The position numbers and the translations under genes are program-made. Below are positions 10,570 through 30,139 of a DNA stretch of 64,000 nt, in pieces (within the stretch, counting starts at the first letter, position 1; the number at the start of each line of letters is the position of its first letter). The notes beneath the pieces were generated by a model. The model did no database searches, had not been told where the DNA came from, and saw only the letters and a list, made by a program, of their open reading frames with translations. Origin of the DNA: a virus (lineage: Duplodnaviria > Caudoviricetes); IMG/VR virus record IMGVR_UViG_3300042402_003952. One strand, 5' to 3'.

Positions 10570-10785
10570 ATGAATTTTTTACGCTGGTTGTTTTCTCCTA
10601 CAGATAAAGAAATGTGTGAAGAATCTAGCATTTATTCAATTATTCTTGATTTACAAGAAAGAATTGAAACTCTGGAAGCAGAGAATATTGAAACCACAAA
10701 TACTCTTTATGAACTCATGAATTCTATTGAAGCAGTTGATGCACGTATAGATATTCTGACTTTAGAAAAGTGGAAAGATAAATAA
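10570..10785 (+). CDS. coiled-coil hypothetical protein
   Basis: 71-aa ORF, AAGGA SD. Confidence 0.65.
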   Translation: MNFLRWLFSPTDKEMCEESSIYSIILDLQERIETLEAENIETTNTLYELMNSIEAVDARIDILTLEKWKDK

Positions 10786-10821
10786 TGATGCCTGAGTTGG
10801 TGGTTCTTTTCAGGTTGGGAT

Positions 10822-10848
10822 AAAGCACCTTAAGTTAAGGGTGCTTTT
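10822..10848 (+). terminator. intrinsic terminator-like hairpin
   Basis: AAAGCACC-TTAAGTTAAG-GGTGCTTT(T). Confidence 0.7.
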
Positions 10849-10852
10849 CCTG

Positions 10853-10860
10853 TATAAATA
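10853..10860 (+). promoter_or_regulatory. T4-type late promoter TATAAATA
   Basis: exact motif 27 nt upstream of ATG 10888. Confidence 0.75.
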
Positions 10861-10887
10861 TTAATAACCACCAACTTAAGAGCAGTT

Positions 10888-11484
10888 ATGAAAGGAGTAA
10901 TTTATTGCTACCATTGTATTCCTACGGGGAAGAAATACATTGGACAAACAAAATATGAAAGAAGGAGAAAAGAACACCATAATTATATGGTGAAAAATGG
11001 TTCTAAAAGAAAGTTTTATAACGCAATTAAAAAATATGGATGGGAAAATTTCATATATGGTATAATTGAAGAATGTGATAGTAATACATTACTTCAAAGA
11101 GAAATGTACTATATTAAAAAATATGGCACTTTTAAGTGTGGATATAACAGTACATTGGGTGGTGATGGTAAATCTGGATGGAAACACACTGAAGAGACTA
11201 AGGGAAAAATTGCTAAATCAAACACTGGGAAAAAACGCTCTGTTGAGCAAAGAAAACTTTTAAGTGAGATACATAAAAATAAACCACTTTCTTTAGAGCA
11301 CAGAAAATCTATAAGCGACGCACATAAAAAAACAGGATTTGTTCCTCCTTCACATAGGAATACGAAATGGTGGAATGATGGACAAATTTCTAAAAGATCT
11401 GTAGAATGTCCAGGTTATAATTGGAGTCCTGGAAGATTGCCCTTAGGTCCTTACTTTAATAGAAAAAAATGTACGAAGAATTAG
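10888..11484 (+). CDS. GIY-YIG homing endonuclease with NUMOD3-like DNA-binding repeats (Seg-like)
   Basis: GVIYC..KKYIGQT, FYNAIKKYG, E.YYI, GYN.T.GG, HTEETK.KI. Confidence 0.9.
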   Translation: MKGVIYCYHCIPTGKKYIGQTKYERRRKEHHNYMVKNGSKRKFYNAIKKYGWENFIYGIIEECDSNTLLQREMYYIKKYGTFKCGYNSTLGGDGKSGWKHTEETKGKIAKSNTGKKRSVEQRKLLSEIHKNKPLSLEHRKSISDAHKKTGFVPPSHRNTKWWNDGQISKRSVECPGYNWSPGRLPLGPYFNRKKCTKN

Positions 11485-12649: not shown

Positions 12650-12932
12650 GTTTTGTAACGACAGTATAAATACAATCTTAAGAAACATCACATTTGACTT
12701 AAATACTGTTAGGATAAGAACATAATTGCAAAAGACCTATGACTTTACCATCAAGAAAAACAAACACTCTTACCGATGCAGAGTTTGATGAAATGATGGC
12801 ACTTAAAAATGCAATTAATTATAATCCTGCGGCAGTACACCACAAAAAGCAAGAAGAATTTACTGCATATCTGGTAAGAAGTTTGAGAGAACGTGGAGGT
12901 TGATAAATAACAGAAGGTATTTTTGTAGATAA

Positions 12933-13763
12933 ATGCTTTCTGAGGGTAGAAAAAGAGACACAGCAGCAAATGCAGTTTTAGCACTTTCATTTGCTGCAAA
13001 TGCAGCACAATCTCCTCAATCATTAGTAAGATCTGGACACGATGCTGCTCCAAGTCTCCCTTTAATGGGAGAACTGATGAGAAAGAGAAAGGAAGCAAAT
13101 AGAAATTTGGATAGTGCTAGAGTATCTGAACCAGCACGTAATCGTAAGAAAAAGACTTTTAAAGAGTTTGTAGAAGAATCAGCAATAATAAGAGAAGGAA
13201 GACATTTCTCATCTAAAGATGAGTTAATGAAGTATCACGGAGGAAAACTACCAGATGGAACCTTCATTAAAAATAGAGGAACTAAAGAAGCACCCAAGTA
13301 TGGTATTGCTTCAGTTCAATCTAGAGAAAATGAGAAGGAAAGAAGAGAAAAAAGAATTAAACAAGCAACAGGACAACTAACACCAAGAGAAAAGGCAAAA
13401 GTTGAACGTAAACGTAGATTAGCAAGAGAACGTGGAGCAGAACTTCATCACGCAACTGAAATAGAAACTTCTGGCAAAGAAATGAAGGATATGTCTCCTG
13501 GTGATGTGTTGAGACATAAGAAAAAGCAAGCACAAGAGAAGAAGTATCACGGTAATGACCCCAAAAACCTAGTTGTTGCAAATAAAGGTCCAGTTTCAAA
13601 ATTCAAACCACAACAACCAGGATTTCATCATGGTAAGTTCCATGCATTTGAAAGAGGTAATCGTGAAAAACTAGGTGATATTGGTAATGCCATCACTCCT
13701 ATGAGAGCTTTCACTACTCTTGTGAATAAAGCAAGAAGAAAAACTAGAAGAGGAGAAGATTGA
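12933..13763 (+). CDS. late basic protein with internal capsid-targeting-like motif and HNH-like C-terminus
   Basis: ATAAATA at 12903; internal KTFKEFVEES; LHH...GNDPKNL...HGKFH. Confidence 0.6.
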   Translation: MLSEGRKRDTAANAVLALSFAANAAQSPQSLVRSGHDAAPSLPLMGELMRKRKEANRNLDSARVSEPARNRKKKTFKEFVEESAIIREGRHFSSKDELMKYHGGKLPDGTFIKNRGTKEAPKYGIASVQSRENEKERREKRIKQATGQLTPREKAKVERKRRLARERGAELHHATEIETSGKEMKDMSPGDVLRHKKKQAQEKKYHGNDPKNLVVANKGPVSKFKPQQPGFHHGKFHAFERGNREKLGDIGNAITPMRAFTTLVNKARRKTRRGED

Positions 13764-13788
13764 TAAATAAAAGAAAAGTTATAAAAAG

Positions 13789-14247
13789 ATGAAAACTTTT
13801 AGAGAGTTCCTAGAAGAAGCATACCTCGTTGAGATGCGTAAAGAGGATAAACTTAAAGGAGAAACGAAAACTCCTCTCCACGTAACCACAACTTCAGGTA
13901 GAGTTGTGAAAAAACCTGGAGGCGGACTAGAAGTTAAGAAATCAACAAGAAAATCATTAACACCTAGAGCAGCAACTGGTAGAATGAAGCAGGGGATGAT
14001 TGATAGAGAAACACAACCATATGCTACTCGTATGCCTGGTGCTGCTAGACACGCACAAGGTGGTGGAGGTTCTGGAGCAGCAGCACCTGGTAGATTGAGA
14101 GGTGTTGGAAAACTAGAAAAGCAAAAAATGGAGAAAACTCCAGAAGGAGAAAGAGTAAGACCATTTAGTGCTGGTCCATCACCAGCACAAAAGGTTGCAT
14201 TGAGAAGAGCAAAAATAGCACGTTCAACTGGTGGCGGACAAAGATGA
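13789..14247 (+). CDS. putative internal head protein (capsid-targeting sequence)
   Basis: ATAAATA at 13763; N-terminus MKTFREFLEEA; highly basic. Confidence 0.7.
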   Translation: MKTFREFLEEAYLVEMRKEDKLKGETKTPLHVTTTSGRVVKKPGGGLEVKKSTRKSLTPRAATGRMKQGMIDRETQPYATRMPGAARHAQGGGGSGAAAPGRLRGVGKLEKQKMEKTPEGERVRPFSAGPSPAQKVALRRAKIARSTGGGQR

Positions 14248-15209
14248 AATCTTTTCAACAGTTTCTAGAAGAAGCATATTTCATACTAGAAAAGAAAAGA
14301 CAGTATGATGACTCGCACGGATTTGATAGGTCAAAGCATCCTGACCTAGAAGTTAAGTATGACCGACCAAGAGGAAAAGACCAAAATACTAACAGAAGCG
14401 GTTCTACAACTATTCACCATAAACCTTCCGGGGTTACTTATACTATTGGTCATTCTAAAAGGCATAGTTCCGATGATGAATACGAACATATGTATGATGC
14501 TAAATTAGGTGGAAAAGCAAGAACCGCACACGGACACAAACCCGAACATAATGTTAGGTGGGAACATAGTAAGTCTAATGACCAAGATAAGATGAGTCCA
14601 GGTGAAAAGTTAAGAACTGCAAGGAACGCAAAGAGGGTTTGGGATAAGCACGTCCAACATAGAATTCCTAGTGGGCATCTGGTATCTAATGAACCAGAAG
14701 AGAACTCAAGTGATAATAGAAGAAACCCTGATAAAAATACAAGAGCATCAATTTATAAGAAGTCTGGGTTTGGAAAAGTAGATAGTTGGGGTAAGCAGTA
14801 TTCGACAAAAATTGGAAAGAAATTTCATCCAGTACATAACGATGAAGACCTAGAAGAAGCAAAGGCACCAAAATCTGATGCTCTAGAAACGATTCAAAGA
14901 AAAACAAAAGGAAGAACACCAGGAATGAAGTATGTTGTTCATACTACAAGTTCTGGTGATATTCGTGTAGATAACATTGAAGTTCCAGAGAATCAAAGAG
15001 GCAAAGGAATTGCAAAAAGAACATTTAAAGGACTTCATAACTATGCAGATAATATTGGTAAAAATGTTTCTTTGACCCCAGTTGCAAAACCAGGGTATAA
15101 AGAAAAATTAGATAAGATGTATAGAAATCTAGGTTATCGAGACCGCACACCTTCGGATAGAATTGCTGGTGCAGATACAATGATTCGTACCCCCAAGGAG
15201 AAAAAATGA
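14244..15209 (+). CDS. putative internal head protein with C-terminal GNAT acetyltransferase domain
   Basis: MKSFQQFLEEA; internal DLEEA; IEVPENQRGKGIA and KMYRNLGY. Confidence 0.7.
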   Translation: MKSFQQFLEEAYFILEKKRQYDDSHGFDRSKHPDLEVKYDRPRGKDQNTNRSGSTTIHHKPSGVTYTIGHSKRHSSDDEYEHMYDAKLGGKARTAHGHKPEHNVRWEHSKSNDQDKMSPGEKLRTARNAKRVWDKHVQHRIPSGHLVSNEPEENSSDNRRNPDKNTRASIYKKSGFGKVDSWGKQYSTKIGKKFHPVHNDEDLEEAKAPKSDALETIQRKTKGRTPGMKYVVHTTSSGDIRVDNIEVPENQRGKGIAKRTFKGLHNYADNIGKNVSLTPVAKPGYKEKLDKMYRNLGYRDRTPSDRIAGADTMIRTPKEKK

Positions 15210-15991
15210 AAACCTTTCAAGAGTTTATTTACGAATGTTATGAACTAGAAGAAAGTTCAGGTGGTGAAAGAAGTGGTAGAAGAACCAGAGGTAAGGTAAC
15301 ACTTGCTCGTGGTCGTGGTGCTGATATGACTCGTCAAGAAAGAACTACTGCTTCTATCGCAAAGAAAGCAGGTCTTAAAGGAACTGGTAAGTATTCCACT
15401 AAAGACTTGAGAACAAAGCATAAGGATTATACAACTTATGATAGTGAAGATGAGTTAGATGATATTGGAAGCACAGAGCAAGACCATTTCATCCGCACTC
15501 ATTCTTCTCCAAGAAAAGCAGCAAAAAGTGAGAGATTGATTTCAAAGATGAAGTCAGTAACAAGACCTATAATTGGAAGACCTGGAATAACGGGTAGAAC
15601 GACTGCACATAAAACTACACCTTCAAGTGAAAGTGTAAGAAAAGTGAAAGACTTAAAAAAGAATATGACTAAAGCAGGTGCAAATAAAAGAGGTGAAGTT
15701 CACACTGTAGATATTATGCACCGTGATAGTAACCTTGGTAAGGGTGATAGGCACCAGCAAATGGAAAGGGGTAGAAACTTTATTCAAGCAGTGAAGGATA
15801 CTCCAAAGCATTTGAAAGCAGCAGGAGCAAAAAAAGGTGATGCTGTTGTCGGAAAACCAACTGCTGTTATGCCTGGTGAAGACAAGAAAACTGGTGAAGC
15901 AAAAAGAGCAAAACTTTATAAGAAAGCATTCGGCAAAAAGAGCACTGAAAAGTCCACAAAAACTGGATTGATGGTTGGTAAATCAGACTAA
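15206..15991 (+). CDS. putative internal head protein, possible degenerate GNAT C-terminus
   Basis: MKTFQEFIYE; basic; RAKLYKKAFG. Confidence 0.6.
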   Translation: MKTFQEFIYECYELEESSGGERSGRRTRGKVTLARGRGADMTRQERTTASIAKKAGLKGTGKYSTKDLRTKHKDYTTYDSEDELDDIGSTEQDHFIRTHSSPRKAAKSERLISKMKSVTRPIIGRPGITGRTTAHKTTPSSESVRKVKDLKKNMTKAGANKRGEVHTVDIMHRDSNLGKGDRHQQMERGRNFIQAVKDTPKHLKAAGAKKGDAVVGKPTAVMPGEDKKTGEAKRAKLYKKAFGKKSTEKSTKTGLMVGKSD

Positions 15992-16049
15992 AAGACACTC
16001 CTTGAACTGTCCCCGAGACCCCGCAAGGGGTCTTTTTTTGTGCTATACT
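15992..16049 (+). promoter_or_regulatory. early promoter element copy 4 with embedded terminator
   Basis: AAGACA-N10-TGTCCC, 30 nt containing GACCCC-GCAA-GGGGTC-T7, TATACT. Confidence 0.8.
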
Positions 16050-16493: not shown

Positions 16494-16652
16494 ATGAAAC
16501 CAACACCAAGAGAATTGCAGGAAACTTATAAGACCTACGAGAGTGTTGTAGAGCATTTAATTTCAGAAGGTTATGCAGAGGATAAAGAATCTGCAGATAA
16601 GATTATTGAAGGTATGAGTGAAACCTGGTACAAATTTATAGTTAAAGAATGA
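16494..16652 (+). CDS. 52-aa late protein: stand-alone L..EGY...MSE.W module
   Basis: ATAAATA at 16470; hand translated ...HLISEGYAEDKESADKIIEGMSETWYKFIVKE. Confidence 0.65.
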   Translation: MKPTPRELQETYKTYESVVEHLISEGYAEDKESADKIIEGMSETWYKFIVKE

Positions 16653-19127: not shown

Positions 19128-19928
19128 ATGGATTCTAGAGACATTCAATCGTACCAAGAAGTTCATACTATTGATGAAGGTATCCGTTCTTCATTGAAGA
19201 GATTTCTTGGTAGAAAAAAGAAAGAAGCAGAAGCACCAAAACCAATGAGTAGAGGTGAAGTTCTACGTCAGAGATATAATGTTGGACCAGAAAAATCTGA
19301 TACTTCTGCAAAGAGACAAATTCTCAATCGTAGTCGTGCAAGAGCAGAAAGAGATGAAGAGAAATATGGTGGTTCCATATATACCAAAAAAGTTGCAGAT
19401 AAATCAAGAGAAGCACATAATCGTTATTTGAAAGCTGGTTATAGTAAGTATGGTGCTACACATACTGCAGGGAGTGCTCCCGAACAAGGTAGAGGTAATA
19501 AAGCAAGAAAAAGAGCAGCAGCACTCAATAAAGAAGAATTTGATTTCATCCTCTATCATCTTGTAAATGAGGGATATACAAATAATCTTAAAGGTGCAGA
19601 AGTCATTGCATCAAATATGAGTGAAGAATGGGTGGAGAGTATTGTTGAAGAACTTACTGGAGAAAGAAGAACAAGAGCATTAGAAAAAGGAGGATATTTA
19701 GCAAACAGGGTTGCTAGTGGAAAGGAAGGACAACCAGTAGAAAGAAGAAATCGTAGTGGTGATGTAACTATGAGAACAACTACAAAAGGACCAACTAAAA
19801 GAGGGGGTATTGGGTTTAAAGGAAAATCAAAATCAGATTGGTATGGTGGTGATGATACACACGGTTCTGGTAATAAATCAAGAAGAAGGAGAGGATTGGA
19901 AGTCAAAGATACAAGTGATGATTTATGA
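19128..19928 (+). CDS. late basic protein with L..EGY...MSE.W module (probable internal/processed virion protein)
   Basis: TATAAATA 19097-19104; MDSRDIQSYQEV..IDEG; YHLVNEGY...MSEEWVESIVEE. Confidence 0.65.
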   Translation: MDSRDIQSYQEVHTIDEGIRSSLKRFLGRKKKEAEAPKPMSRGEVLRQRYNVGPEKSDTSAKRQILNRSRARAERDEEKYGGSIYTKKVADKSREAHNRYLKAGYSKYGATHTAGSAPEQGRGNKARKRAAALNKEEFDFILYHLVNEGYTNNLKGAEVIASNMSEEWVESIVEELTGERRTRALEKGGYLANRVASGKEGQPVERRNRSGDVTMRTTTKGPTKRGGIGFKGKSKSDWYGGDDTHGSGNKSRRRRGLEVKDTSDDL

Positions 19929-19980: not shown

Positions 19981-20025
19981 ATGAAAAACACTTTTACAAA
20001 ATAAATAATCAAAAAGTGTTTAAAA

Positions 20026-20523
20026 ATGAAAAACTTTACTCAATTTAATGAAGATATGCAATCATTAAGGAGAAATCTTGATGCCATATCAAAACAGGAT
20101 GCTCCAGCAGAAAGACTTGCACAGAGAAGAAGAATTGCTGCTGAAAGATCAAAAACTTCTGCAAGTGACTTTGTAGAAAGACAGAAAGCAAATATACAAG
20201 CACAAAAAGAAAAATATGCACAAATGAGACAAGATTATGAAGAAAGACAGGAACAATTAAGAGCAAAGAGGCAGGCAGAAAAAGAAAAAAAAGAAGCGGA
20301 AAGACAAGCAAGATTAGAAAGACAAAATCAACAGAAAGAAGAGTTGTATTTGGAGCAAACTCCAATAATGAAACCTAATCTTTATAGTCAGTTAGTTGCA
20401 AGGCGCCAGGCAGCACAAAAATCAGCACATATTAAACACGTCCATCAAGAAATAGGTGCAGAAGCAAGATCGCAAGAGGCAGCACATCAAGCAAGACTTA
20501 AAAAACTCACTGGGACACCTTGA
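20026..20523 (+). CDS. late coiled-coil protein with capsid-targeting-like N-terminus
   Basis: ATAAATA at 20001; MKNFTQFNED; charged heptads. Confidence 0.6.
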   Translation: MKNFTQFNEDMQSLRRNLDAISKQDAPAERLAQRRRIAAERSKTSASDFVERQKANIQAQKEKYAQMRQDYEERQEQLRAKRQAEKEKKEAERQARLERQNQQKEELYLEQTPIMKPNLYSQLVARRQAAQKSAHIKHVHQEIGAEARSQEAAHQARLKKLTGTP

Positions 20524-21828: not shown

Positions 21829-21847
21829 GTGTATAACTAATATCACT

Positions 21848-21905
21848 GTGCCACTTCTTCTAGTGGCACATAACACTTTACAAGGCACGGTCATCGTGCT
21901 ATGAT
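21848..21905 (+). promoter_or_regulatory. early promoter element copy 8
   Basis: GTGCCAC-N8-GTGGCAC; TTTACA-17-TATGAT. Confidence 0.85.
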
Positions 21906-22117
21906 GTATTCATCAAGTCAAGGAGGTTTCAATGGTGTTCAAAAATCAAAACCCAATAGATGATTACGAAGACTTTGCTCTTAAATATCTTGGTATTGAC
22001 CTTGAAGATTATGTCGAATTTATTGGGGACTATGAAGTTCAAGATGAGGAACTAGAATACTCCCTGTCTGCTTGACTTATAGACCGCTGCAGTTCGGTCT
22101 CTAAATATAAACTGTTC

Positions 22118-22188
22118 GGGGAATTAGTTAAACGGTATAACGGGTGCTTTGCAAGCACTTATTAGCAGTTCGATTCTGCTATTCTCCA
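22118..22188 (+). tRNA. trnA: tRNA-Ala(UGC)
   Basis: acceptor GGGGAAT/ATTCTCC with G3:U70; D stem GTTA/TAAC; anticodon loop TTTGCAA; T loop TTCGATT; no encoded CCA. Confidence 0.92.
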
Positions 22189-22229
22189 TTGGGAATAGTA
22201 ATTCCCAAATAGTCCATTACTATTTGTAT

Positions 22230-22454
22230 ATGTCTGACAAACTGATTGCTCTTGCTGCTGAAATCGTTGATACCAACCCTGCTGGTGCTCAACTGATTGT
22301 GAATCTGACTAATGCAGAAACTGGTGCTAAACTGATTGAAGCACTGGATAATTATGACTCCACTGTTCTTGAGAATCATACTGAACCCGTGGATTCTGAA
22401 GATGACGGTTATGTGTCTCTTACTGATGCTAAAGGTGCTGTAAATACTCTCTGA
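22230..22454 (+). CDS. hypothetical protein
   Basis: MSDKLIALAAE start downstream of the tRNA. Confidence 0.6.
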   Translation: MSDKLIALAAEIVDTNPAGAQLIVNLTNAETGAKLIEALDNYDSTVLENHTEPVDSEDDGYVSLTDAKGAVNTL

Positions 22455-22490
22455 TTATTCTTTTTCTGATTCCTTTACTTTAACTTTATT

Positions 22491-22742
22491 ATGGCACGTC
22501 GTAGCAAATCTGCTTCTCGTCAAGTGGTTGAATCTCTGAAAGACCAACTCACTGAGTATTTCCGTGAAAATGTCTTTGATGATTGTGATTATGAAAACCT
22601 GACTGGTTCTGAACTCTTTGAGGCACTGGTTGAAACATTCAAAGAACTTGAGAATGACCTCAAGGAAGAACTGAAACCCATTCAATATGTACTAAATAAA
22701 CTTGACCCAGAGGATTCTGAATCTCAAGTCCTTAACGGTTAA
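22491..22742 (+). CDS. acidic hypothetical protein
   Basis: 83-aa ORF. Confidence 0.65.
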   Translation: MARRSKSASRQVVESLKDQLTEYFRENVFDDCDYENLTGSELFEALVETFKELENDLKEELKPIQYVLNKLDPEDSESQVLNG

Positions 22743-22829
22743 TTTCTACGGGCATTAAAGGTCCAAACTTTAAGTAAGTCCCACACCCTCTATGCCTCTT
22801 AATAATGCACAAACAGGAGGGTCTCTTAT

Positions 22830-22902
22830 GGGGCAGCAGCATGACGGATCATGCACCATCCTTCTAAGATGTAAGATGGGGGTTCAAATCCCTCCTGCCC
22901 TG
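22830..22902 (+). tRNA. trnR: tRNA-Arg(UCU)
   Basis: acceptor GGGGCAG/CTGCCCT; D stem GCAT/ATGC; anticodon loop CTTCTAA; T loop TTCAAAT. Confidence 0.88.
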
Positions 22903-22919
22903 CTTTATTTTTTATTACA

Positions 22920-23690
22920 ATGAAACTCAAAGTTCTTAGTGATTTGCACCTGGAGCACTTTGTTGCTTGTCAAGTATTTGATGTTGGTGAAGGTGATGTT
23001 CTAGTTCTTGCTGGGGACATTCTTTGTGCCAAGCACTTTAAGACTGATGGATATATTCACGCAGTCTATGATAGGTTCCTGAGTGATTGCAGTAAGAACT
23101 ATGATAAAGTTCTGTATGTGATGGGAAATCATGAGCCGTATGGATACAATTATGAGGGAACAAAAAAGAAACTAAAAGAGAATCTTCCTCATAATTTCCA
23201 TCTCCTTGATAATGATACAATAACTATCAACAACTGGAACTTTATTGGTTTTACACTCTGGACTGATTTTCGTAATGAAAATGCTCTGGAAATGATGGAG
23301 GCAGAGTGCAATATGAATGATTACAAAGTCATTCGTATTGGTAGTATGTATCGTAAATTGAGAGCAGATGATACTCTTGCATTTCATAAGGAAAGCAAGA
23401 AGTATCTCCTCAAGCAACTACAAACACTGAATGAGAACGTATTTGTCATCAGTCATCACTCACCGAGTTGTCAATCGGTTCCGCAGCAATACAAGAATAA
23501 TGCAAATGGTGCTTATTGTAGTAATCTTGATGATGTTATTGTGAATCACCAACAAATCAAGTATTGGGTTCATGGACACACCCACAATCACTTTGATTAT
23601 GGTATAGAACAGTGTAGAGTGATTTGTAATCCTGGTGGTTATCCAGGTCAAGATACTGGTTTTAATCCAAACTTTGAAATTCAACTGTGA
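22920..23690 (+). CDS. calcineurin-like metallophosphoesterase
   Basis: SDLH, LAGDI, GNHE, SHH.P, HGHTH motifs. Confidence 0.9.
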   Translation: MKLKVLSDLHLEHFVACQVFDVGEGDVLVLAGDILCAKHFKTDGYIHAVYDRFLSDCSKNYDKVLYVMGNHEPYGYNYEGTKKKLKENLPHNFHLLDNDTITINNWNFIGFTLWTDFRNENALEMMEAECNMNDYKVIRIGSMYRKLRADDTLAFHKESKKYLLKQLQTLNENVFVISHHSPSCQSVPQQYKNNANGAYCSNLDDVIVNHQQIKYWVHGHTHNHFDYGIEQCRVICNPGGYPGQDTGFNPNFEIQL

Positions 23691-23941
23691 TTATGACAAT
23701 CAAACAAATCGAAAGCATTTTTTCTGAATCTGGAGTTGTAAAAGTTTCAGCAGTAATTGAGGATTCTATTTTGATGTATTCTCAAACTCTTTATGACCCT
23801 GCTGAATATGGACCTGCTATTTGTGAGGCATCATTTGAGTTAGATGAAGATGAGATTCTTCCAGACGATGAAGATAAACTTATTCAGTTTCTTGAAAATC
23901 TCAATTTGGACTGGATTTTAATAGATAGTAGTGATTACTAA
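23687..23941 (+). CDS. conserved cyanophage hypothetical protein
   Basis: 84 aa; Q..YDPAEYGPA.C. Confidence 0.65.
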   Translation: MIMTIKQIESIFSESGVVKVSAVIEDSILMYSQTLYDPAEYGPAICEASFELDEDEILPDDEDKLIQFLENLNLDWILIDSSDY

Positions 23942-24045
23942 CTAAAAAAATGAAAGACCTAACATTAGATGAAATGTTGGAAATTGCTGCTCAACGAGAA
24001 GCGGCAAATGAAGCACTACTAAAACGCCAAGAAGAGGATAGTGGG

Positions 24046-24103
24046 GGGACACTTGGGGAACCGTCCCCTGAAACCCCCACAGACCCCTCTGATGCCCTAT
24101 CAT
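24046..24103 (+). promoter_or_regulatory. early promoter element copy 9
   Basis: GGGACA-N10-CGTCCC, 30 nt, TATCAT. Confidence 0.75.
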
Positions 24104-24259
24104 AGTCCTATGAGAAATCAAGGGAATGACCACTCCAAATTGGCAACACAATTCAGGAAAAGATAAGAATACAAAAGGTTCTTGCAAGGGGAAACTCAAA
24201 GCAAGAAAGCAAGCACTTCAACACATCAAACGCAAACTCAAAGTAATCTGATGACCTAT

Positions 24260-24424
24260 CAAAATCTTTTGGAGATTCTTCAGACTCTGACTCTGGAGCA
24301 GTTGAAGTCTGATGTGTCAATTTATGATATTGCCAATGATGAGTTTTATCCGATGAATAGTTTTCATTTCTCGGACCATACAACTCAAGTTCTTGACACT
24401 GACCACCCTTACGTTTCTTTCTGA
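24260..24424 (+). CDS. small hypothetical protein
   Basis: MTYQNLLEILQTL...DHPYVSF. Confidence 0.55.
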   Translation, partial: QNLLEILQTLTLEQLKSDVSIYDIANDEFYPMNSFHFSDHTTQVLDTDHPYVSF

Positions 24425-24426
24425 TT

Positions 24427-24693
24427 ATGTATCGCAATCTTGCTAATCTCAAGCAACGGGTTGATGACCTGATTGCAACGTATGGTGAAGATGCCTATGT
24501 TGCTGCATTTGTTTTCAGTCCTGCTGATGTATTCACTATGGATGAGAACTTTGTAGAGCAATATCTTCCTGATGAAGATGCTTGTGAAGTTCTTTATGAA
24601 GTAGGAAATACTGATTACATTTATCAAGTAATTGGTGAATGTATTGATGATGAAGTTGCCCGTCTGAAACTCAAGCAAAGTATCAAAAAATGA
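24427..24693 (+). CDS. hypothetical protein
   Basis: 88-aa ORF. Confidence 0.65.
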   Translation: MYRNLANLKQRVDDLIATYGEDAYVAAFVFSPADVFTMDENFVEQYLPDEDACEVLYEVGNTDYIYQVIGECIDDEVARLKLKQSIKK

Positions 24694-25067
24694 AAGAAGT
24701 CACCATCACTGTTAAACTTCTCCTTGAGGATGACCAACCTTCTTGCGATTGGATTTATGAAAGTATCTACGAACAACTGAATCACGATGCAGGAGAATCA
24801 ATTCTTGAGTATTCTGACGATGAACCAGTGCTTTTCCGTTGGATTGACTGACTGACGAAAGCAAACCTTCAACACAATCAATTTATTTTAATGGCAAAAG
24901 CACTGACTGACGAAATGCGCCAACTTCGCGCTGATATTGTTGAGTTTGTGAATCTTGCAATCAATGAGAAACAAGATGCTTCTTTTTATACTGACGAGCA
25001 AGTAATTGAACTTAAAAAGCAAGCACAACGTATCTCTAAGTTTCTTGGTGTAGTTAAGTAGAGTGGT

Positions 25068-25125
25068 GTGCCACCTGTAGCACTGGCACATTTAACCCCC
25101 GCAGACCCCCCTGATGCCCTATAAT
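25068..25125 (+). promoter_or_regulatory. early promoter element copy 10
   Basis: GTGCCA-N10-TGGCAC, 30 nt, TATAAT. Confidence 0.85.
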
Positions 25126-25149
25126 ACAGGGACACAAGCAAAGGAGACC

Positions 25150-25392
25150 ATGACGGTTCTTGATGTTTTCCACTACACTACTTCTCGTTGGGATTGGCAC
25201 GAAGGTAATGTAAATCAAATGTGGATTCAAGAGATTGAGCAATCGGAAGATTACTACAGTTATGTTGCTGTTGCTTACAATCCTCGCAAGGATGCAACTA
25301 TGGTAATGTCTGAACCACGTTGCTATGCTGATACCTTGAACTGGGTTCGTAAGTTCTGTGGTTCTTTCTGCATTCTTCCTCAATACTGCTGA
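25150..25392 (+). CDS. hypothetical protein
   Basis: MTVLDVFHY start after AAGGAG SD. Confidence 0.65.
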   Translation: MTVLDVFHYTTSRWDWHEGNVNQMWIQEIEQSEDYYSYVAVAYNPRKDATMVMSEPRCYADTLNWVRKFCGSFCILPQYC

Positions 25393-25394
25393 TT

Positions 25395-25580
25395 ATGAGA
25401 TTTGTTGGTAATTGTATCAATTCATTTGATGAATTTGGGAATTGTATTATTCCCCAACTTCCTTTCTCCAATGTTACTGATTTCGCACAACTTGTGGAAG
25501 AAAATGATAATGTAGAGATTGGAAATTTTGTTATTCAGTATAACCAAGAAACTGACGTTCATTCATTTTTTTTCAAATGA
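25395..25580 (+). CDS. hypothetical protein
   Basis: 61-aa ORF. Confidence 0.55.
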   Translation: MRFVGNCINSFDEFGNCIIPQLPFSNVTDFAQLVEENDNVEIGNFVIQYNQETDVHSFFFK

Positions 25581-25879
25581 CTTTCACCTTCCCTCGTCTG
25601 TCTGCTGGTATCTACGAAGTACAGAAGGATTCTAACACAGTTGGATTCATTCGTAAAGTCAATGCTGGTAAGTGGATGGTTGCTGATGTTGTAGATACTC
25701 CACAAGAGGTCACAAAGACTCTCAAAGATGCAAAGGATGCTTGTATCAATCTCATCATCTTTAATGTACTTGACAAGACTTCAGATAGTGAGTATGATAC
25801 CTTTGTCCAGGATGATAAGAATAGTGTAGATAAGTTTAAGACTCTTAAGGAACCAACTCTGGACCCTATCTTATTCTGA
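25577..25879 (+). CDS. hypothetical protein
   Basis: 100-aa coupled ORF. Confidence 0.65.
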   Translation: MTFTFPRLSAGIYEVQKDSNTVGFIRKVNAGKWMVADVVDTPQEVTKTLKDAKDACINLIIFNVLDKTSDSEYDTFVQDDKNSVDKFKTLKEPTLDPILF

Positions 25880-25937
25880 GTGCCACTTGTGGAACCGTCC
25901 AGCATCTCTCCCAAACCCACGGGAGAGATGCTATACT
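25880..25937 (+). promoter_or_regulatory. early promoter element copy 11
   Basis: GTGCCA-N10-CGTCCA, 30 nt (hairpin GCATCTCTC/GAGAGATGC), TATACT. Confidence 0.8.
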
Positions 25938-25960
25938 GTATGAATACAAACGTTAATTGA

Positions 25961-27196
25961 TTGATGCTGACTCTTCTTCCTTATCAACAACGTGCTCTTG
26001 ATGCTGTGCAAAAAGCAATCAGGGGTTCTGTCTATATTCCTACTGGTGGCGGTAAGACTGTTGTGATGATGGAAGATGCTCGTCAACGTGTTCTTAACGC
26101 AAAAGAACCGATGACGTTTGTTGTTGTTGCACCTCGTATTCTGCTTGCAAATCAACTCTGCTCAGAGTTTGAAGAGTATCTCAAAGACCAGAATGTTGCT
26201 TATATTCACGTTCATAGTGGAGAAACTCATCATCAATCCACTACACGTTCAGCAGTCATTGCCGAATACAATGACACTGCAATCGGAAGTGGCAAGCATC
26301 AGTTCATTTTCACTACTTACAATTCGATTGGTCGGGTGAACGAAGCAGACATTAACATTGATGTGGTGTATTTTGATGAAGCACACCACTGTGTGAAACC
26401 TTCTAACTTTGTGGGTATTGCTCACACTTCATCAGTTGCAGATAATGCTTATTTCTTCACTGCAACTCCGAAGTTCAATAACAGCAAAGAGTCGATGAAC
26501 AATACTGATGTTTATGGCAACAACATCATCAGTATTCCTGCACAAGAATTGATTGATGCAGGTAGTATCATTCCCCCTAAAGTTGTGCCTTATGAAGCAC
26601 AAACCATTCGCACCAAAGAAAATGCACCTTTTGTAGATGCAGAAAACATTGTAGGTATTCTGTCAGAGATTTCTGATTGTGATGCTCCTAAAGTTCTTGT
26701 TGCTGCTCCTAGCACCAAAGTAATTTGGGCAATGTTCACTGAGAGTGATTTGCTGCAACAACTCAATGACATGGGTTATACCATTATGCACATCACTTCC
26801 AAGCACGGTGCTTATATTGATAAGAATAAAGTATCCCGTGAAGTTTTCTTTGAGAGGATGAATGAGTTTGGTGCAGATCCAGACAAGAAGTTCATTGTAT
26901 TTCATTACTCTATCTTGAGTGAGGGAATCAATGTCCAAGGTTTGACTCATTGCATTATGCTTCGCAATCTTCCTATGATTGAAATGTGTCAAACGATTGG
27001 TCGGGTCATCCGTATGCACAGAGAAGACCGTAAAGCAATCGCAGAAGGTAAGATGAAGGCAGGAGAGTTTGCATTTTATCGCAAACCCTTTGGTACTATT
27101 ACCATTCCCGTTAATAATAACTATGGGGATAGGATTGCTCGACAACTTCAAAGTGTGATTGACACTGTTTTTGTGAAAGGTGAAGTGGTTGTATAA
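25961..27196 (+). CDS. SF2 DEAD/DEAH-box helicase (type III Res-subunit-like)
   Basis: PTGGGKT, DEAHH, TATP, LSEGINV, QTIGRVIR. Confidence 0.9.
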   Translation: MMLTLLPYQQRALDAVQKAIRGSVYIPTGGGKTVVMMEDARQRVLNAKEPMTFVVVAPRILLANQLCSEFEEYLKDQNVAYIHVHSGETHHQSTTRSAVIAEYNDTAIGSGKHQFIFTTYNSIGRVNEADINIDVVYFDEAHHCVKPSNFVGIAHTSSVADNAYFFTATPKFNNSKESMNNTDVYGNNIISIPAQELIDAGSIIPPKVVPYEAQTIRTKENAPFVDAENIVGILSEISDCDAPKVLVAAPSTKVIWAMFTESDLLQQLNDMGYTIMHITSKHGAYIDKNKVSREVFFERMNEFGADPDKKFIVFHYSILSEGINVQGLTHCIMLRNLPMIEMCQTIGRVIRMHREDRKAIAEGKMKAGEFAFYRKPFGTITIPVNNNYGDRIARQLQSVIDTVFVKGEVVV

Positions 27197-27223
27197 ATCT
27201 CTATGTGTCCCACATAGAATACA

Positions 27224-27388
27224 ATGCCCTTCACTAAAAAGTTTCCTAAATCAGGTGAAACTAAACACATTCGAGTTCCAGTAATTTATGCTAACCTTGT
27301 ATTAGAACTAATGGAACTCTTTGAGAATAAATTTGAACCAGAAAGGGGAACACATCTTCTCAGAAAGTACATTAACAATCTCAGTTGA
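27224..27388 (+). CDS. 54-aa putative ribbon-helix-helix DNA-binding protein
   Basis: hand translated MPFTKKFPKSGETKHIRVPVIYANLVLELMELFE... Confidence 0.55.
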   Translation: MPFTKKFPKSGETKHIRVPVIYANLVLELMELFENKFEPERGTHLLRKYINNLS

Positions 27389-27403
27389 GTCCAATGTGTC
27401 TGT

Positions 27404-27461
27404 GTGCCACTTGTAGGGGTGGCACACTAAAAGAGCACAGACCCCTCTGGGGTGCTATCAT
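27404..27461 (+). promoter_or_regulatory. early promoter element copy 12
   Basis: GTGCCAC-N8-GTGGCAC, 30 nt, TATCAT. Confidence 0.85.
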
Positions 27462-27485
27462 TACAAAGTAATCGGTTGAGGAGCA

Positions 27486-27686
27486 ATGTTTAATCTGATT
27501 TCTGGTTTCACAATGGGTGAGTGTAGTGAGTTGATTACTTGTGCTTATAACTCTGCTGCTTGGTATCGCTACCTTGCACAAGATAGTGAGCAGAATCGTG
27601 ATTATTGGTTGGAGCGTGCAGAGAAATCTGAACTGCTTGCCGATAAGTTGAATGATGCCTACTCCAAGGCACTTTACGTTGCTTGA
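27486..27686 (+). CDS. hypothetical protein
   Basis: 66 aa, GAGGAG SD. Confidence 0.65.
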   Translation: MFNLISGFTMGECSELITCAYNSAAWYRYLAQDSEQNRDYWLERAEKSELLADKLNDAYSKALYVA

Positions 27687-27839
27687 TGACAACAATGACT
27701 TACACTCCAATTCAATCGAACCTTCCTTATCTGAAGGTTCCCGAAAACCGATTGAATCTTGCATTTAATTGGTATAACAGGCAGAAAGATCATCCATTGA
27801 ACTTTCCCTGTTTTGCTTATTGGATTCAACTTTGTGAAA

Positions 27840-28040
27840 ATGATGGAACTGACTACTGAAACTATGATTGACACTGTTCTGACGATGGAAGAAATCCTGA
27901 CTGAAAAGCAACTGCTTTCTCTGCGGGACATTATTTACTTCTACAAAGAGTTTCAACTGGAACTCTACAATTATCCTCAAGAGGATACTCTTTTCACTAA
28001 AACTCAACGAGAACTGTTCGACATTTTCGATATCAAATGA
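27840..28040 (+). CDS. hypothetical protein
   Basis: MMELTTETMIDTVLTMEE... Confidence 0.6.
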   Translation: MMELTTETMIDTVLTMEEILTEKQLLSLRDIIYFYKEFQLELYNYPQEDTLFTKTQRELFDIFDIK

Positions 28041-28267
28041 CTTTCATTGAAGCACTCATTGCATCTGGTTATGTCTTTGATGATGAGGACTATGATGGTT
28101 GTTATGTAAAACAGGACTCGGAAGGTTTCATTCACTGTTATCAGGAAAATGTGGAGGATGAGACTGATAAGGAGTGGAATTATGTAAAAATGACTGATGA
28201 TTTTGATGTTATCATTGAAACAACGGTCTTTGATGATGACAACTGTGTTCCCTGTGCTACATTATGA
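28037..28267 (+). CDS. acidic hypothetical protein
   Basis: 76-aa coupled ORF. Confidence 0.6.
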   Translation: MTFIEALIASGYVFDDEDYDGCYVKQDSEGFIHCYQENVEDETDKEWNYVKMTDDFDVIIETTVFDDDNCVPCATL

Positions 28268-28473
28268 CTTCTATTTCTTTCACTTCTGGTGAGTTGCTTG
28301 ATATTATCAAAGCACTTGAGTATTATGAAGATGATGCTTATTTCAATCAGGAAGATGCACAACTTGCTTCTTATTACTTGAGTATGCAAAATCAATTTCA
28401 ACGCATTTATCAAAAGTTGCAAGAATTGCCTGGAGAGGATAGAGTTGCTAATCTTGTTCTTGCTGCAAACTAA
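28264..28473 (+). CDS. hypothetical protein
   Basis: 69-aa coupled ORF. Confidence 0.6.
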   Translation: MTSISFTSGELLDIIKALEYYEDDAYFNQEDAQLASYYLSMQNQFQRIYQKLQELPGEDRVANLVLAAN

Positions 28474-28655
28474 TGAAACCTAAATTCCGTGCCGTATTAG
28501 AAATGGCAATCGAGGAAGGTGTGAGGTATGGATACAACCGTGCATTTAAGCATAATCCAGAACCTCACATTGATTCGATAACTGATACTATTGTAACTGA
28601 AATCTTTAATTCACTCGACACTTGGTTTGATGATGTCAACTGCACTGAAAACTAA
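28473..28655 (+). CDS. hypothetical protein
   Basis: 60-aa coupled ORF. Confidence 0.6.
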   Translation: MKPKFRAVLEMAIEEGVRYGYNRAFKHNPEPHIDSITDTIVTEIFNSLDTWFDDVNCTEN

Positions 28656-29058
28656 AATGAATCCCGAAGTTAAGAAAAAGTGGATTGATGCTCTGCGTTC
28701 TGGTTGGTATGATCAAGGCAGTGAGAAACTCCGCAGTGTAACTGGTTATTGTTGCCTTGGTGTTCTCTGTGATTTGTATACACAAGAAACAAAACTGGTA
28801 GGTTGGGAGTTTCGAGGTGCATTTAAGGAAGAAAATACTCAACCAACTGATTATTGGTATTTTGACGGAGAGGGTGAGTTTCTGCCTGAATCTGTAAAAG
28901 AATGGGCAGGACTTCCTGTTGGTAATCCTAGTGTCCGAGTGGATGTAACCGACAATGATGATGAAGATGATTGGTTCTATACTGATGAGATTGCCAATCT
29001 GAACGATTCGGGTTATACTTTCGATGAACTTTCTAACTTGATTGAATCTCAATTCTGA
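28627..29058 (+). CDS. widespread phage hypothetical protein (W..ALRSG.Y.Q...CCLGVLC family)
   Basis: recognisable motif. Confidence 0.7.
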   Translation: MMMSTALKTKMNPEVKKKWIDALRSGWYDQGSEKLRSVTGYCCLGVLCDLYTQETKLVGWEFRGAFKEENTQPTDYWYFDGEGEFLPESVKEWAGLPVGNPSVRVDVTDNDDEDDWFYTDEIANLNDSGYTFDELSNLIESQF

Positions 29059-29076
29059 TGAGTCCAATGATGCGAT

Positions 29077-29133
29077 GTGCCACTTGTTCTAGTGGCACAC
29101 TAAAAGAGCACAGATCCCTAAATGTGGTATTGT
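29077..29133 (+). promoter_or_regulatory. early promoter element copy 13
   Basis: GTGCCAC-N8-GTGGCAC, 29 nt, TATTGT. Confidence 0.8.
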
Positions 29134-29180
29134 ATAGGAGTGGTGAGGGATGCCGCACCACATGCTCTTTATTTTTTGCA

Positions 29181-29513
29181 ACATTGGAACTGACTAATTC
29201 TTTCCCCTCTGTTGAGTCTGCTATCAACAAACTCAAGCAGTTTAATTATATTCAGTTTGGTGCTGATGTAATCAAGTTTGCTGCAACTTTCTCTGCTATT
29301 GTTGTTGCTGCAGTTTCCTATGGTTGGACCGCATTTCAACTTTGGTGGGATGATAATGGTGAAGCAACCCAAGTCAATTTCATTCGGTTTGTTGTAAATG
29401 TAATTGACTTTGTTGCTGCGATTGTGATTGCTATTCCCAAGATTTATCGTTGGGTGAAACTGAACACCAATCGCCTGGTTGATTCTCTGTTCTTTCAGTA
29501 CATTTTTGCTTGA
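29181..29513 (+). CDS. membrane protein (start uncertain, downstream of promoter)
   Basis: two hydrophobic helices; the listed 29058 start runs through the promoter. Confidence 0.5.
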   Translation, partial: TLELTNSFPSVESAINKLKQFNYIQFGADVIKFAATFSAIVVAAVSYGWTAFQLWWDDNGEATQVNFIRFVVNVIDFVAAIVIAIPKIYRWVKLNTNRLVDSLFFQYIFA

Positions 29514-29560
29514 TTAAGCGTTCCATTTGAGAACGTTTTTTTACCTCACACCACAACAAA

Positions 29561-30139
29561 ATGAACAATCTAGATCTGATCATTGAGGCATATAATTCTG
29601 AAGTTGAAACTATCCCACAAATTCACAAAGAAGAAGGTGGCGGGAAAGCAAGGAACGCATCTGGAGTTCTTTTTGAGAATTTTACCCACAGGATTTGTTC
29701 AGATAATGGTCTTGTAGCAAAAAAGAATGATTATAAAAAAAGTAAAGAAGTACTTGGATTTGCTGTAAATAATCTTCAAGTAGATAAACACATTTATAAA
29801 AACAAAGAACTCAAAAAACTTTTAGAATTGAAGGCATATCTAGATTCTTGTTATTTGAAGCGTGCTGTGCTAGACTTTATTGAACTTTGTGAATCTCCTG
29901 ATGTTCCAAATGAAGTTGACTGTGCGATTCTATGTGGACAAGAATGTGTATCAAAGGATACTCTAAACTACTATACTGCTTATTTTAAGAGTAAAACAAA
30001 TAAAGATTTGAATATTTTTGTTGTCAATAAAGTTAAAAAACGCAACGCAAGCAAAGCGATATATATGGAACAATATATTGATGACTTTCAACTTGATATT
30101 GATGAAGTAAATAAATTTGTTGAGTGGTTAAATAAATGA
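29561..30139 (+). CDS. putative PD-(D/E)xK restriction-type endonuclease
   Basis: G..FE, QVD, LELK pattern; ATGA-coupled to an MTase. Confidence 0.5.
   Translation: MNNLDLIIEAYNSEVETIPQIHKEEGGGKARNASGVLFENFTHRICSDNGLVAKKNDYKKSKEVLGFAVNNLQVDKHIYKNKELKKLLELKAYLDSCYLKRAVLDFIELCESPDVPNEVDCAILCGQECVSKDTLNYYTAYFKSKTNKDLNIFVVNKVKKRNASKAIYMEQYIDDFQLDIDEVNKFVEWLNK

Follow-up and report, generated by a model that had tools for sequence, protein, structure and literature searches.

Capsid-targeting-like tags on a four-gene cassette of a T4-like phage from lake water

Tagged and processed head proteins in described phages

The capsid-targeting sequence of the T4 internal proteins, defined by Mullaney and Black in 1996 according to a review of the field, is an N-terminal decapeptide whose targeting depends on positions 4 (aromatic) and 7 (Phe) and whose cleavage depends on positions 8 (aliphatic) and 10 (Glu) (PMC9026906). 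The T4 record gives MKTYQEFIAEA as the start of both IPII and IPIII and MKTFKEF as that of IPI, which bears out the MKT(F/Y)xEF start ascribed to all three in the original prediction for the locus studied here. We know of no internal, polyprotein or post-leader tags in the T4 internal proteins. Jumbo phages of the phiKZ-like and SPN3US-like kinds have a T4-like prohead protease that cuts many head-internal proteins after Glu (PMC9026906, PMC5694885). Among the cyanophages, the virions of S-CREM2 contained the non-structural proteins SAM hydrolase, APH-like kinase and cytidylyltransferase (PMC10665884), and a tagged cytidylyltransferase family, T4-GC190, was detected in the virions of S-SM1 (PMC3037559). 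Neither paper draws a link between presence in the virion and the tag (PMC10665884, PMC3037559). Our literature search found no paper linking the capsid-targeting sequence to cyanophages, and within the library searched the two terms co-occurred only in a T4 review.

The DNA analysed here, referred to as the window, is a stretch of 64 kb from a T4-like phage of the freshwater cyanomyovirus lineage, found in lake water. It contains a cassette of four neighbouring genes whose products share with the T4 internal proteins an N-terminal decapeptide with equal residues at positions 2-4, 7, 8 and 10, basic and mutually unrelated mature parts behind one tag, a gene cluster in a variable genome region with a late-type promoter, and membership of a phage family possessing a gp21-type protease. 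They differ from them in that the mature parts have no sequence similarity to one another across the two phages, the cassette proteins are larger (152-321 aa versus 95-193 aa) and their cargo includes GNAT-type enzymes. A search of the cassette proteins against internal-protein families (Pfam including IPI, and PHROG) gave no match to these families, the sole match being phrog_3966 over the first 40-70 residues. Through its predicted cut sites the cassette resembles the inner-body and ejection proteins of the jumbo phages, which have redundant sites, more than one per propeptide, whereas the jumbo-phage proteins have an S/A-x-E cleavage motif, no MKTF-type tag and another lineage.

Layout of the cassette and its late-type signals

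The cassette occupies 12933-15991 on the + strand and consists of the translationally coupled ORF1 (12933-13763, 276 aa), ORF2 (13789-14247, 152 aa), ORF3 (14244-15209, 321 aa) and ORF4 (15206-15991, 261 aa), with ATGA overlaps joining ORF2, ORF3 and ORF4. The four proteins are hydrophilic, with a pI of 9.7-11.0 and a K+R content of 20-23%, far above most proteins of the window, in agreement with the original prediction of four consecutive K/R-rich ORFs. The predicted terminator was also present at 16015-16039 (+ strand), where a strong hairpin (16015-16034), the top short G+C hairpin of the region, is followed by a T-run and ends the operon. No DNA relatives of the cassette were found by megablast against the phage collection, and the nearest record, a 36-kb fragment, carried neither the tag nor a prohead protease. 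Two ORF4 homologues and nine strict matches to the tag were present in the cultured phage S-SRM01, and the synteny of the cassette was kept in S-SRM01 and in metagenomic contigs. This synteny, together with conserved homologues numbering in the hundreds and two confident AlphaFold models, already excludes the idea that the ORFs are not genuine genes or that the motifs cluster by chance, for which the missing database annotation of the cassette ORFs was the sole supporting point.

Both ATAAATA motifs of the original prediction were located. The first (12903-12909, + strand) lies 30 nt upstream of the ORF1 start and overlaps the stop codon of an upstream 54-aa gene, and the ORF1 homologue in the relative L045 has the motif upstream at equal spacing. 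The second (13763-13769, + strand) lies 26 nt upstream of the ORF2 start and is conserved in L045, G002 and G004. The published late-promoter consensus of cyanomyoviruses is NATAAATA (PMC2984593). The window contains 14 copies of ATAAATA, every one on the coding strand, while its reverse complement is absent (0 copies versus 10.6 expected), and nine of the 14 copies sit 22-35 nt upstream of an ORF start, an interval comprising 3.2% of positions. A spacing of 23-34 nt was also seen upstream of the baseplate genes gp25 and the wedge gene at 58601. Since the coding-strand count is itself at chance level (14 versus 14.7 expected), the promoter call draws its support from strand bias and spacing rather than from transcripts; among the RNA runs, a single metatranscriptome contained a small share of the cassette sequence. 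The cassette would be a late operon of cargo genes with a pair of NATAAATA-type promoters and a single terminator, a reading of the sequence that we regard as moderately likely jointly with the head-cargo explanation given below.

The original prediction had placed this cassette as a late island within the early region. The late-type promoter part of that claim stood, but the island did not keep its borders, because further late-type motifs precede an upstream gene (12666) and downstream genes (16470, 19098 and 20001), which extends the late zone to about 10.8-20.5 kb, wider than the cassette. Sigma-70-like promoters showed no excess between 9 and 19 kb (28 versus 27.8 in shuffles), a count that speaks neither for nor against early flanks, and the neighbouring late ORFs matched only families of unknown function in PHROG and Pfam.

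The tag, its conservation and its carriers in virions

ORF2, ORF3 and ORF4 begin with MKTFREFLEEA, MKSFQQFLEEA and MKTFQEFIYEC, respectively, sharing the start MK(T/S)FxxF(L/I)xE, and ORF1 carries KTFKEFVEES internally at residue 74, so that all four strings listed in the original prediction were recovered. All four positions critical in T4 are matched, at the N-terminus in ORF2, ORF3 and ORF4 and at the internal residues 73-82 in ORF1, and the assignment of a T4-type capsid-targeting tag to these ORFs was upheld to this extent. The pattern K[TS][FY]x[EQ]F had four matches on the + strand of the window, all within the cassette ORFs. An independent repeat search returned a DNA repeat at 13145, 13785, 14240 and 15202, together with a fifth copy at 20022. 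The latter marks a fifth tagged ORF beyond the coordinates originally given (20001-20523, + strand), with ATAAATA at 20001 and an ORF at 20026-20523 that encodes a basic coiled coil of 165 aa starting with MKNFTQFNED, a variant of the tag in which Asp occupies position 10. In the T4 tag, Asp at this position allows targeting and blocks processing (PMC9026906).

Several hundred metagenomic relatives, with identities as low as about 30%, kept the tag although the cargo behind it was swapped, and some of these relatives bear the exact IPII/IPIII string of T4. Nearly all of 120 close ORF4 homologues begin with the tag, followed by sequences of differing classes. When ORF4 relatives were clustered at 50% identity, the tag was present in 31 of the 55 representatives, reaching 25-30% identity to ORF4. 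S-PM2 gave no strict match, so not every member of the family has the tag. In ORF1, the tag (13149-13178, + strand; K-KTFKEFVEE, with a predicted cut after Glu82) follows a conserved leader module (12933-13148, + strand; residues 1-72, MLSEGRKRD...AANAAQSP...). Leaders of this type, about 73 residues long and starting with M-[LI]-x-E-[GA], always stand upstream of a tag, and they were found fused before ORF1-type, ORF4-type and other cargo and on the first cassette gene in five relatives (G002, G003, G004, G006 and L045). Relatives of the ORF1 cargo also begin directly with MKTF (forms of 204-231 aa), and the same type of cargo was seen either with an N-terminal MKTF or with a post-leader tag in which Lys, Asn or Gly replaces Met. 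Polyproteins of two or three tag-plus-domain units exist, with tags at the module boundaries; the ORF3-type GNAT, for example, stands as a tagged gene of its own in relatives and carries the tag internally in L045. Function of the T4 tag was demonstrated at the N-terminus, and the T4 review (PMC9026906) describes no internal, polyprotein or post-leader (73-residue) tags, whereas the ORF1 tag is internal and the cassette lineage has all three arrangements. The mature parts contained fewer sites of the type [LIV]xE than expected (2 versus 6.4, P about 0.03), and such sites gathered at the tags and junctions. The major capsid proteins of cyanophages retain LxE/A where T4 gp23 has FLTE/A (the slash marks the cut position).

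The window contains no head genes and no gp21-type prohead protease, and the co-occurrence of cassette and gp21 therefore rests on relatives. One related contig (G006) carries the cassette together with a Peptidase_S77 prohead protease, and a gp21-type prohead protease is present in S-SRM01, S-CRM01 and S-CREM2. In the cultured S-CREM2 (175 kb), a relaxed tag pattern matched four sites, the starts of ORF6, ORF13, ORF14 and ORF154, with no match in the reversed control, and all four proteins are listed in the published virion proteome, whose authors caution that virion preparations might also contain co-purified proteins that are simply abundant (PMC10665884). The tags of the S-CREM2 and S-SM1 virion proteins read MKDFDSFLEE, VKRFDAFLTE, MKNFSSFLTE and MKKFSAFLNE. 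These proteins have the kind of N-terminal tag and the phage family in common with the cassette and differ in their cargo families and in gene arrangement, the genes being scattered or in a minus-strand block and not in such a cassette.

A shared N-terminus need not concern the capsid; it could be a relic of paralogy, an element of translation initiation or of the mRNA in late genes, or an address for some other late complex or for turnover. The DNA repeat at the four ORF tags is 69-87% identical, every copy lies at or near the translation start of a late-type gene, and T4 gp61.1, an unstudied candidate for a non-virion protein, has the same start, all of which would suit such an origin. It is nevertheless improbable, since synonymous codons vary at the conserved tag residues, which indicates selection on the protein level, the motif also occurs far from start codons with Met replaced, it is joined to cargo of unrelated kinds, the positions it conserves coincide exactly with those known from T4 genetics, and the four S-CREM2 carriers are all virion proteins.

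Given the head-loading tag of T4 on all four, the proteins probably travel in the virus particle and enter the host together with the DNA. By analogy to T4, the explanation that we moderately favour is that the four ORFs form a late operon of tagged phage-head cargo, which is docked, cleaved and ejected with the DNA. The M-K-(T/S)-(F/Y)-x-x-F-(L/I/V)-x-E tag would dock each protein on the scaffolding core while the prohead is being assembled, and a gp21-type prohead protease would cut after the Glu at position 10, with a probable second cut at an [LIV]xE site five or six residues beyond it. The protease would also cut the internal tags of ORF1 and ORF3, so that the mature proteins would be freed within the capsid and exit with the DNA at infection. 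Docking, cleavage and ejection, as well as the targets of the enzymes, are inferred.

The cargo domains and what they may do

Among the cargo of the cassette, the ORF3 C-terminus and ORF4 would be acetyltransferase-like, ORF2 a basic DNA-associated protein and ORF1 a His-rich domain. The ORF1 cargo (13179-13763, + strand) contains the invariant motifs HH..T, YHGxxPxNL and PGFxH, of which the HH, N and H are invariant across 33 sequences. It had no Pfam match and no PDB match at E <= 0.001 by Foldseek, and VIA-align over 48,161 chains gave a maximum Z of 3.8, covering the C-terminal helices only. A weak nuclease lead from Atlas, with a score of 0.76, was below the Atlas noise level. The conserved His/Asn pattern had made an HNH or His-Me finger nuclease, defined by a beta-beta-alpha metal finger with a catalytic His and an Asn/His metal ligand, a conceivable identity for ORF1, which we do not claim. 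ORF2 (13789-14247, + strand) is composed of the tag MKTFREFLEE and a Gly/Lys/Arg-rich protein of 142 residues with a pI of 11.0. Homologues with the same tag occur in L045, G002, G003 and G004, no recognisable domain was found in Pfam or PHROG, and ORF2 resembles an internal protein of basic character that associates with DNA.

ORF3 has two parts. The first (14244-14858, + strand) consists of the tag MKSFQQFLEE and a domain that shows a remote relationship to the core of ORF4 (hhalign probability 71%, E 3.8e-5), and it ends with DLEE/A, a relic tag with a predicted second cut after residue 205. The second (14859-15209, + strand; residues 206-321) is, as judged from sequence and model, a GNAT acetyltransferase domain, having both the fold and the Q/RxxGxG/A acetyl-CoA loop, intact as RGKGIA. 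It matched Pfam Acetyltransf_10 with an E of 0.0035, short of the curated cut-off, was 34% identical to an S-CRM01 acetyltransferase (tblastn), and reached an Atlas feature score of 0.91 to phage GNAT clusters and a TM-score of up to 0.77 (normalised by the matched Atlas model). Relatives have stand-alone genes of tag plus GNAT of about 126 aa, and the S-CRM01 acetyltransferase g185 begins with MKTFDEF.

ORF4 (15206-15991, + strand) consists of the tag MKTFQEFIYE, a linker and a globular alpha/beta domain. In its confident AlphaFold model (pLDDT 87), which shows a GNAT-like fold with modest structural matches, the tag forms a helix (residues 4-17) followed by a disordered linker (19-35) and the globular domain (43-261). 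For residues 69-261, GNATs made up most of the 50 best VIA matches (Z 5.2-7.8). The best structural match was AcrVA5 (PDB 6IUF), a minimal GNAT acetyltransferase that inactivates Cas12a, with an rmsd of 3.1 A over 92 of 95 residues and a Z of 7.8, which falls below the VIA-align caution line of Z 8. Foldseek gave no match to ORF4 at E <= 0.001 and a weak match to the RNase E small domain at E 0.06. The claim of the original prediction that some of the cargo has enzymatic domains was supported for at least one cargo, through the GNAT domain of ORF3 and the GNAT-like fold of ORF4. The ORF4 core and the ORF3 GNAT were unrelated by hhalign (probability 0.1%).

The ORF4 domain and AcrVA5 are alike in being small phage-borne GNAT-like folds, but they share only 6% identity at a score under the trusted level, and ORF4 is set apart by large insertions and by an acetyl-CoA loop that is degenerate (RGRNF, the second Gly being absent). 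AcrVA5 is produced after infection and not known as a packaged protein. A possible though doubtful extension of the head-cargo explanation is that the tag, beyond being an N-terminal address, acts as punctuation of polyproteins. Cargo genes would fuse and split at the tags, the head protease would release each unit, and the 73-residue leader on the first gene of each cassette would come free as a head component in its own right. Acetyltransferases among the injected cargo would then modify targets in host defence or takeover upon arrival, a ready-made AcrVA5-like counter-defence. To ascribe an anti-defence role to the cassette, as known for IPI*, would be pure analogy.

The tag might also load the proteins into the head without their being effectors, as internal proteins that neutralise or organise the DNA or as parts of the assembly core. 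All four proteins are very basic and hydrophilic, as this would require, ORF2 in particular is Gly/Lys/Arg-rich without a recognisable domain, the basic coiled coil of ORF 20026 recalls scaffold proteins, and no function is known for T4 IPII and IPIII either. Enzymes as cargo, however, fit poorly with a purely charge-neutralising role, and the ORF3 GNAT has an intact acetyl-CoA loop, ORF4 folds as a compact GNAT-like domain, and relatives bear the same tag on a SAM hydrolase, a kinase and a nucleotidyltransferase. We consider such a structural role rather unlikely.

On the preferred reading of the cassette as ejected head cargo, the tag would make it possible to predict from sequence, by a simple rule, the proteins that T4-like cyanophages carry in the capsid, and it offers an explanation for the SAM hydrolase, kinase and cytidylyltransferase in cyanophage virion proteomes. 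The cassette shows a way in which cargo can be exchanged or fused, namely by moving whole tag-plus-domain units, and the tag could become a packaging handle for cyanophage engineering, as it already is in T4. Because proteins delivered with the DNA would act before the phage genes are read, they are a natural place to search for first-line counter-defence and host takeover in these viruses, which keep globally important cyanobacteria in check.

Tagged basic proteins of the cassette

The cassette consists of four plus-strand ORFs, ORF1 (12933-13763), ORF2 (13789-14247), ORF3 (14244-15209) and ORF4 (15206-15991), the last three of which are joined by ATGA overlaps. The T4-type capsid-targeting sequence (CTS), M-K-(T/S)-(F/Y)-x-x-F-(L/I/V)-x-E, formed the N-terminus of ORF2 (MKTFREFLEE), ORF3 (MKSFQQFLEE) and ORF4 (MKTFQEFIYE) and was internal in ORF1 (KTFKEFVEE, residues 74-82). 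On the plus strand of the window, the pattern K[TS][FY]x[EQ]F was confined to these four ORFs, and a repeat search made without prior knowledge recovered the same DNA element at 13145, 13785, 14240, 15202 and 20022. The proteins had a pI of 9.7-11.0, 20-23% Lys plus Arg and strongly negative hydropathy, in a window whose proteins are mostly acidic. Pairwise BLAST among the four revealed no clear similarity beyond the first ~20 residues; the best match beyond the tags, between ORF3 63-191 and ORF4 127-254, was weak. The four tagged, K/R-rich ORFs of the original prediction were recovered as described, and its statement on the N-termini of the T4 internal proteins was borne out on the T4 record, where MKTYQEFIAEA begins IPII and IPIII and MKTFKEF begins IPI.

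The first ten residues of T4 IPIII are enough for packaging, with targeting information at residues 4 and 7 and processing information at residues 8 and 10, and Asp at position 10 blocks cleavage while leaving targeting intact (PMC9026906). The window tags carry Phe4, Phe7, Leu/Ile/Val8 and Glu10, and the ORF4 tag differs from that of IPIII at two of ten positions. A second [LIV]xE followed every tag at five or six residues; further into the mature parts, only two such sites occurred where shuffles predicted 6.4 (P about 0.03), and the ORF3 domain junction accounts for one. This junction, DLEE|AKAPK, appears from its sequence to be a relic tag retaining the cleavage half, and in the related locus L045 an internal GKTFREFLKEA immediately precedes the ORF3-type acetyltransferase (GNAT) domain. 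T4 gp23 reads FGSFLTE|AEIGG at residue 65, and cyanophage major capsid proteins carry, at residues 51-56, LxE with Ala or Thr as the next residue, which fits a conserved protease specificity. A protease of the gp21-type family Peptidase_S77 was found in the cyanophages S-SRM01, S-CRM01 and S-CREM2 and in one cassette-bearing contig (G006).

A fifth tagged gene lies beyond the cassette, a 165-aa basic coiled-coil ORF (20026-20523) that starts MKNFTQFNED, with ATAAATA at 20001, 25 nt upstream. Position 8 is Asn and position 10 Asp, for which T4 rules predict a product that is targeted yet uncleaved. S-SRM01 shares this Asp10 subclass (MKSFSQFQED, MKSFQQFQED), one copy standing directly 3' of the major capsid gene. 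In T4, the hypothetical protein gp61.1 (NC_000866 18966-19130, 54 aa), which is acidic and adjoins the primase gene, also has a CTS-like start (MKTFKEFIKE).

ORF1 had 228 relatives. Its cargo domain stood either directly behind an N-terminal MKTF (forms of 204-231 aa) or downstream of a conserved leader of 73 residues, and in the latter forms the Lys of the tag was preceded by Lys, Met, Asn, Gly, Leu or Val. The leader (12933-13148 in the window; homologues P0013, P0030, P0050, P0141 and P0224) always precedes a tag, is also fused to ORF4-type and other cargo, and was found on the first cassette gene in every related contig examined. The leader opens with M-[LI]-x-E-[GA] and continues through a basic segment and a hydrophobic helix rich in Ala to AAQSP; its first four residues resemble a protease site.

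Conservation of the tag and tagged proteins in virions of other cyanophages

ORF4 had 341 database relatives, and nearly all of the best 120 begin MKT[FY]xEF[ILV]xE, with distinct sequence classes directly behind the tag; one relative (P0071) contains the exact T4 IPII/IPIII string MKTYQEFIAEA. A search of 1.8 billion representatives matched ORF4 to 58 clusters, and the tag was kept, down to ~30% identity, in 31 of the 55 whose sequences were read. Several of these are polyproteins in which tag-plus-domain units, two or three per protein, are spaced ~209 residues apart (e.g. P0275, P0276). The codons at the conserved tag residues differ between copies; the constraint therefore acts on the protein. 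Three to six tagged genes were present per cassette in five IMG/VR contigs. The cultured freshwater phage S-SRM01 had nine strict tag matches, all on the coding strand (control, none), including two ORF4 homologues that adjoin a homologue of the window ORF at 16040. A 79-aa tagged protein, MKTFxEF(M/I)SEHCGCVDN, was also seen behind ATAAATA in two related contigs (G002, 18954; G004, 60182; loci L083 and L100).

The S-CREM2 virion proteome comprises 52 proteins, including six non-structural ones left unexplained by its authors (PMC10665884). A relaxed pattern, [MV]-K-x-hydrophobic-x-x-F-hydrophobic-x-E, had exactly four matches in the 175-kb S-CREM2 genome and none in the reversed control. All four fell at start codons (OR473000, 3837-13331, locus L108, and 124608), those of ORF6 (SAM hydrolase), ORF13, ORF14 (kinase) and ORF154 (cytidylyltransferase), and all four products are in the virion proteome, for which we calculated a chance of ~0.003 given that 52 of 221 S-CREM2 proteins were detected. 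These four puzzling non-structural virion proteins all begin with the tag in relaxed form. The so-called Cas9-like protein ORF12, likewise a member of the proteome, carries RFASFMAE|A close to the N-terminus (residues 19-26), a motif absent from its undetected neighbours. Two of the four tagged genes stand behind ATAAATA. The orthologous cytidylyltransferase T4-GC190 of S-SM1 begins MKKFSAFLNE, and it was detected in S-SM1 virions (Sullivan et al.). A targeting sequence is nowhere mentioned in the S-CREM2 and S-SM1 virion papers.

Late-type promoter motifs and the source phage

The window has 35% G+C, and nearly all its long ORFs are on the plus strand. T4-type baseplate genes occupy the part from 43.7 kb onward (gp25-like, gp6-like, a 4164-residue giant protein and further wedge proteins), and the gp6 homologue is ~58% identical to its counterparts in the Synechococcus/Prochlorococcus myoviruses S-SM2, Bellamy and P-TIM68. 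Since lake-water and freshwater metagenomes also contain DNA near-identical to the window, the source is an uncultured freshwater T4-like phage of Kyanoviridae type, and its host is likely a cyanobacterium. At 40089-40355, a direct repeat recurs four times at exactly 72-nt intervals, in the manner of a short CRISPR-like array or a set of iterons.

The motif ATAAATA agrees with the cyanomyovirus late-promoter consensus NATAAATA (PMC2984593). Its 14 copies in the window, a count at expectation (14.7), were all on the plus strand, whereas its reverse complement TATTTAT was absent from the whole window against 10.6 expected (zero reached in 0 of 200 shuffles), which suggests selection against antisense late promoters. 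Nine copies lay 22-35 nt upstream of an ORF start, as only 3.2% of positions do; these plus-strand copies precede ORF1 (12903), ORF2 (13763), the ORFs at 16494, 19128 and 20026, two GIY-YIG endonuclease genes, gp25 (43736) and the wedge gene at 58601. Motif, strand bias and spacing were alike in related loci, and the operon was ended by a G+C-rich hairpin with a T-run (16015-16039).

Eight of the 14 copies fell within 7.7-20.5 kb, a region in which a repeat search of the window found no copies of the promoter-like families D4 and D7. The cassette had been proposed as a late-expressed island inside the early region; its two promoters and closing terminator agreed with the motif spacing and the hairpin, but this distribution places it within a wider late-type zone and not in isolation.

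The GIY-YIG homing-endonuclease-like genes (644-1465 and 10888-11484) each have two ATAAATA copies upstream (527-643; 10778-10887), the proximal one 32-34 nt from the start. The recurrent module EGY...A..I...MSE.W is shared by a 52-aa late ORF (16494-16652), the interior of a 266-aa basic late ORF (19128-19928) and adjacent genes in related contigs (L045 10295-10750; L046 8924-9667), every copy standing behind ATAAATA. Two families of intergenic repeats, a 24-nt palindrome TGTGCCAC...GTGGCACA (eight copies) and GGACAC..ACTGGCACA (six copies), spread over 21847-36267 and 1466-39412, respectively, are missing from 7.7-20.5 kb and probably represent promoter or operator cassettes belonging to a different temporal class.

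Cargo domains and proposed capsid targeting

Residues 206-321 of ORF3 are a GNAT domain, in accord with the enzymatic cargo originally proposed. Pfam matches to GNAT were weak, the RGKGIA loop was present, the Atlas feature score was 0.91, and the structural TM-score reached 0.77 (normalised by the matched Atlas model). The domain was 34% identical to an S-CRM01 acetyltransferase that itself starts MKTFDEF, and it forms a separate tagged gene of ~126 aa in three related contigs (G002, G004, G006). The first domain of ORF3 aligned over residues 97-176 with the ORF4 core by profile comparison (hhalign probability 71%). In the ORF4 model (mean pLDDT 87, pTM 0.77), a disordered linker separates the helical tag from a globular domain. 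GNATs made up most of the 50 structures that matched ORF4 best (Z 5.2-7.8), led by the anti-CRISPR AcrVA5 (Z 7.8, rmsd 3.1 Å, 92 residues aligned). Given such modest scores and a degenerate cofactor loop, the activity of ORF4 is uncertain. The ORF1 cargo has invariant His and Asn residues in an HNH-like arrangement, and sequence and structure searches gave no fold or family match supporting a nuclease; ORF2 had no recognisable domain.

The parallel with IPI* and GmrSD is offered as an analogy. The mature cassette proteins are not homologous to the T4 internal proteins. The cassette system has the testable sequence features of the T4 CTS-plus-gp21 system and would work alike; internal tags in polyproteins and the conserved pre-tag leader are its unusual features. 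Capsid targeting is well supported by the comparative evidence and published proteomics, from which we infer it for the cassette proteins themselves, and the acetyltransferase-like cargo is the ground for the idea that they may act as effectors.
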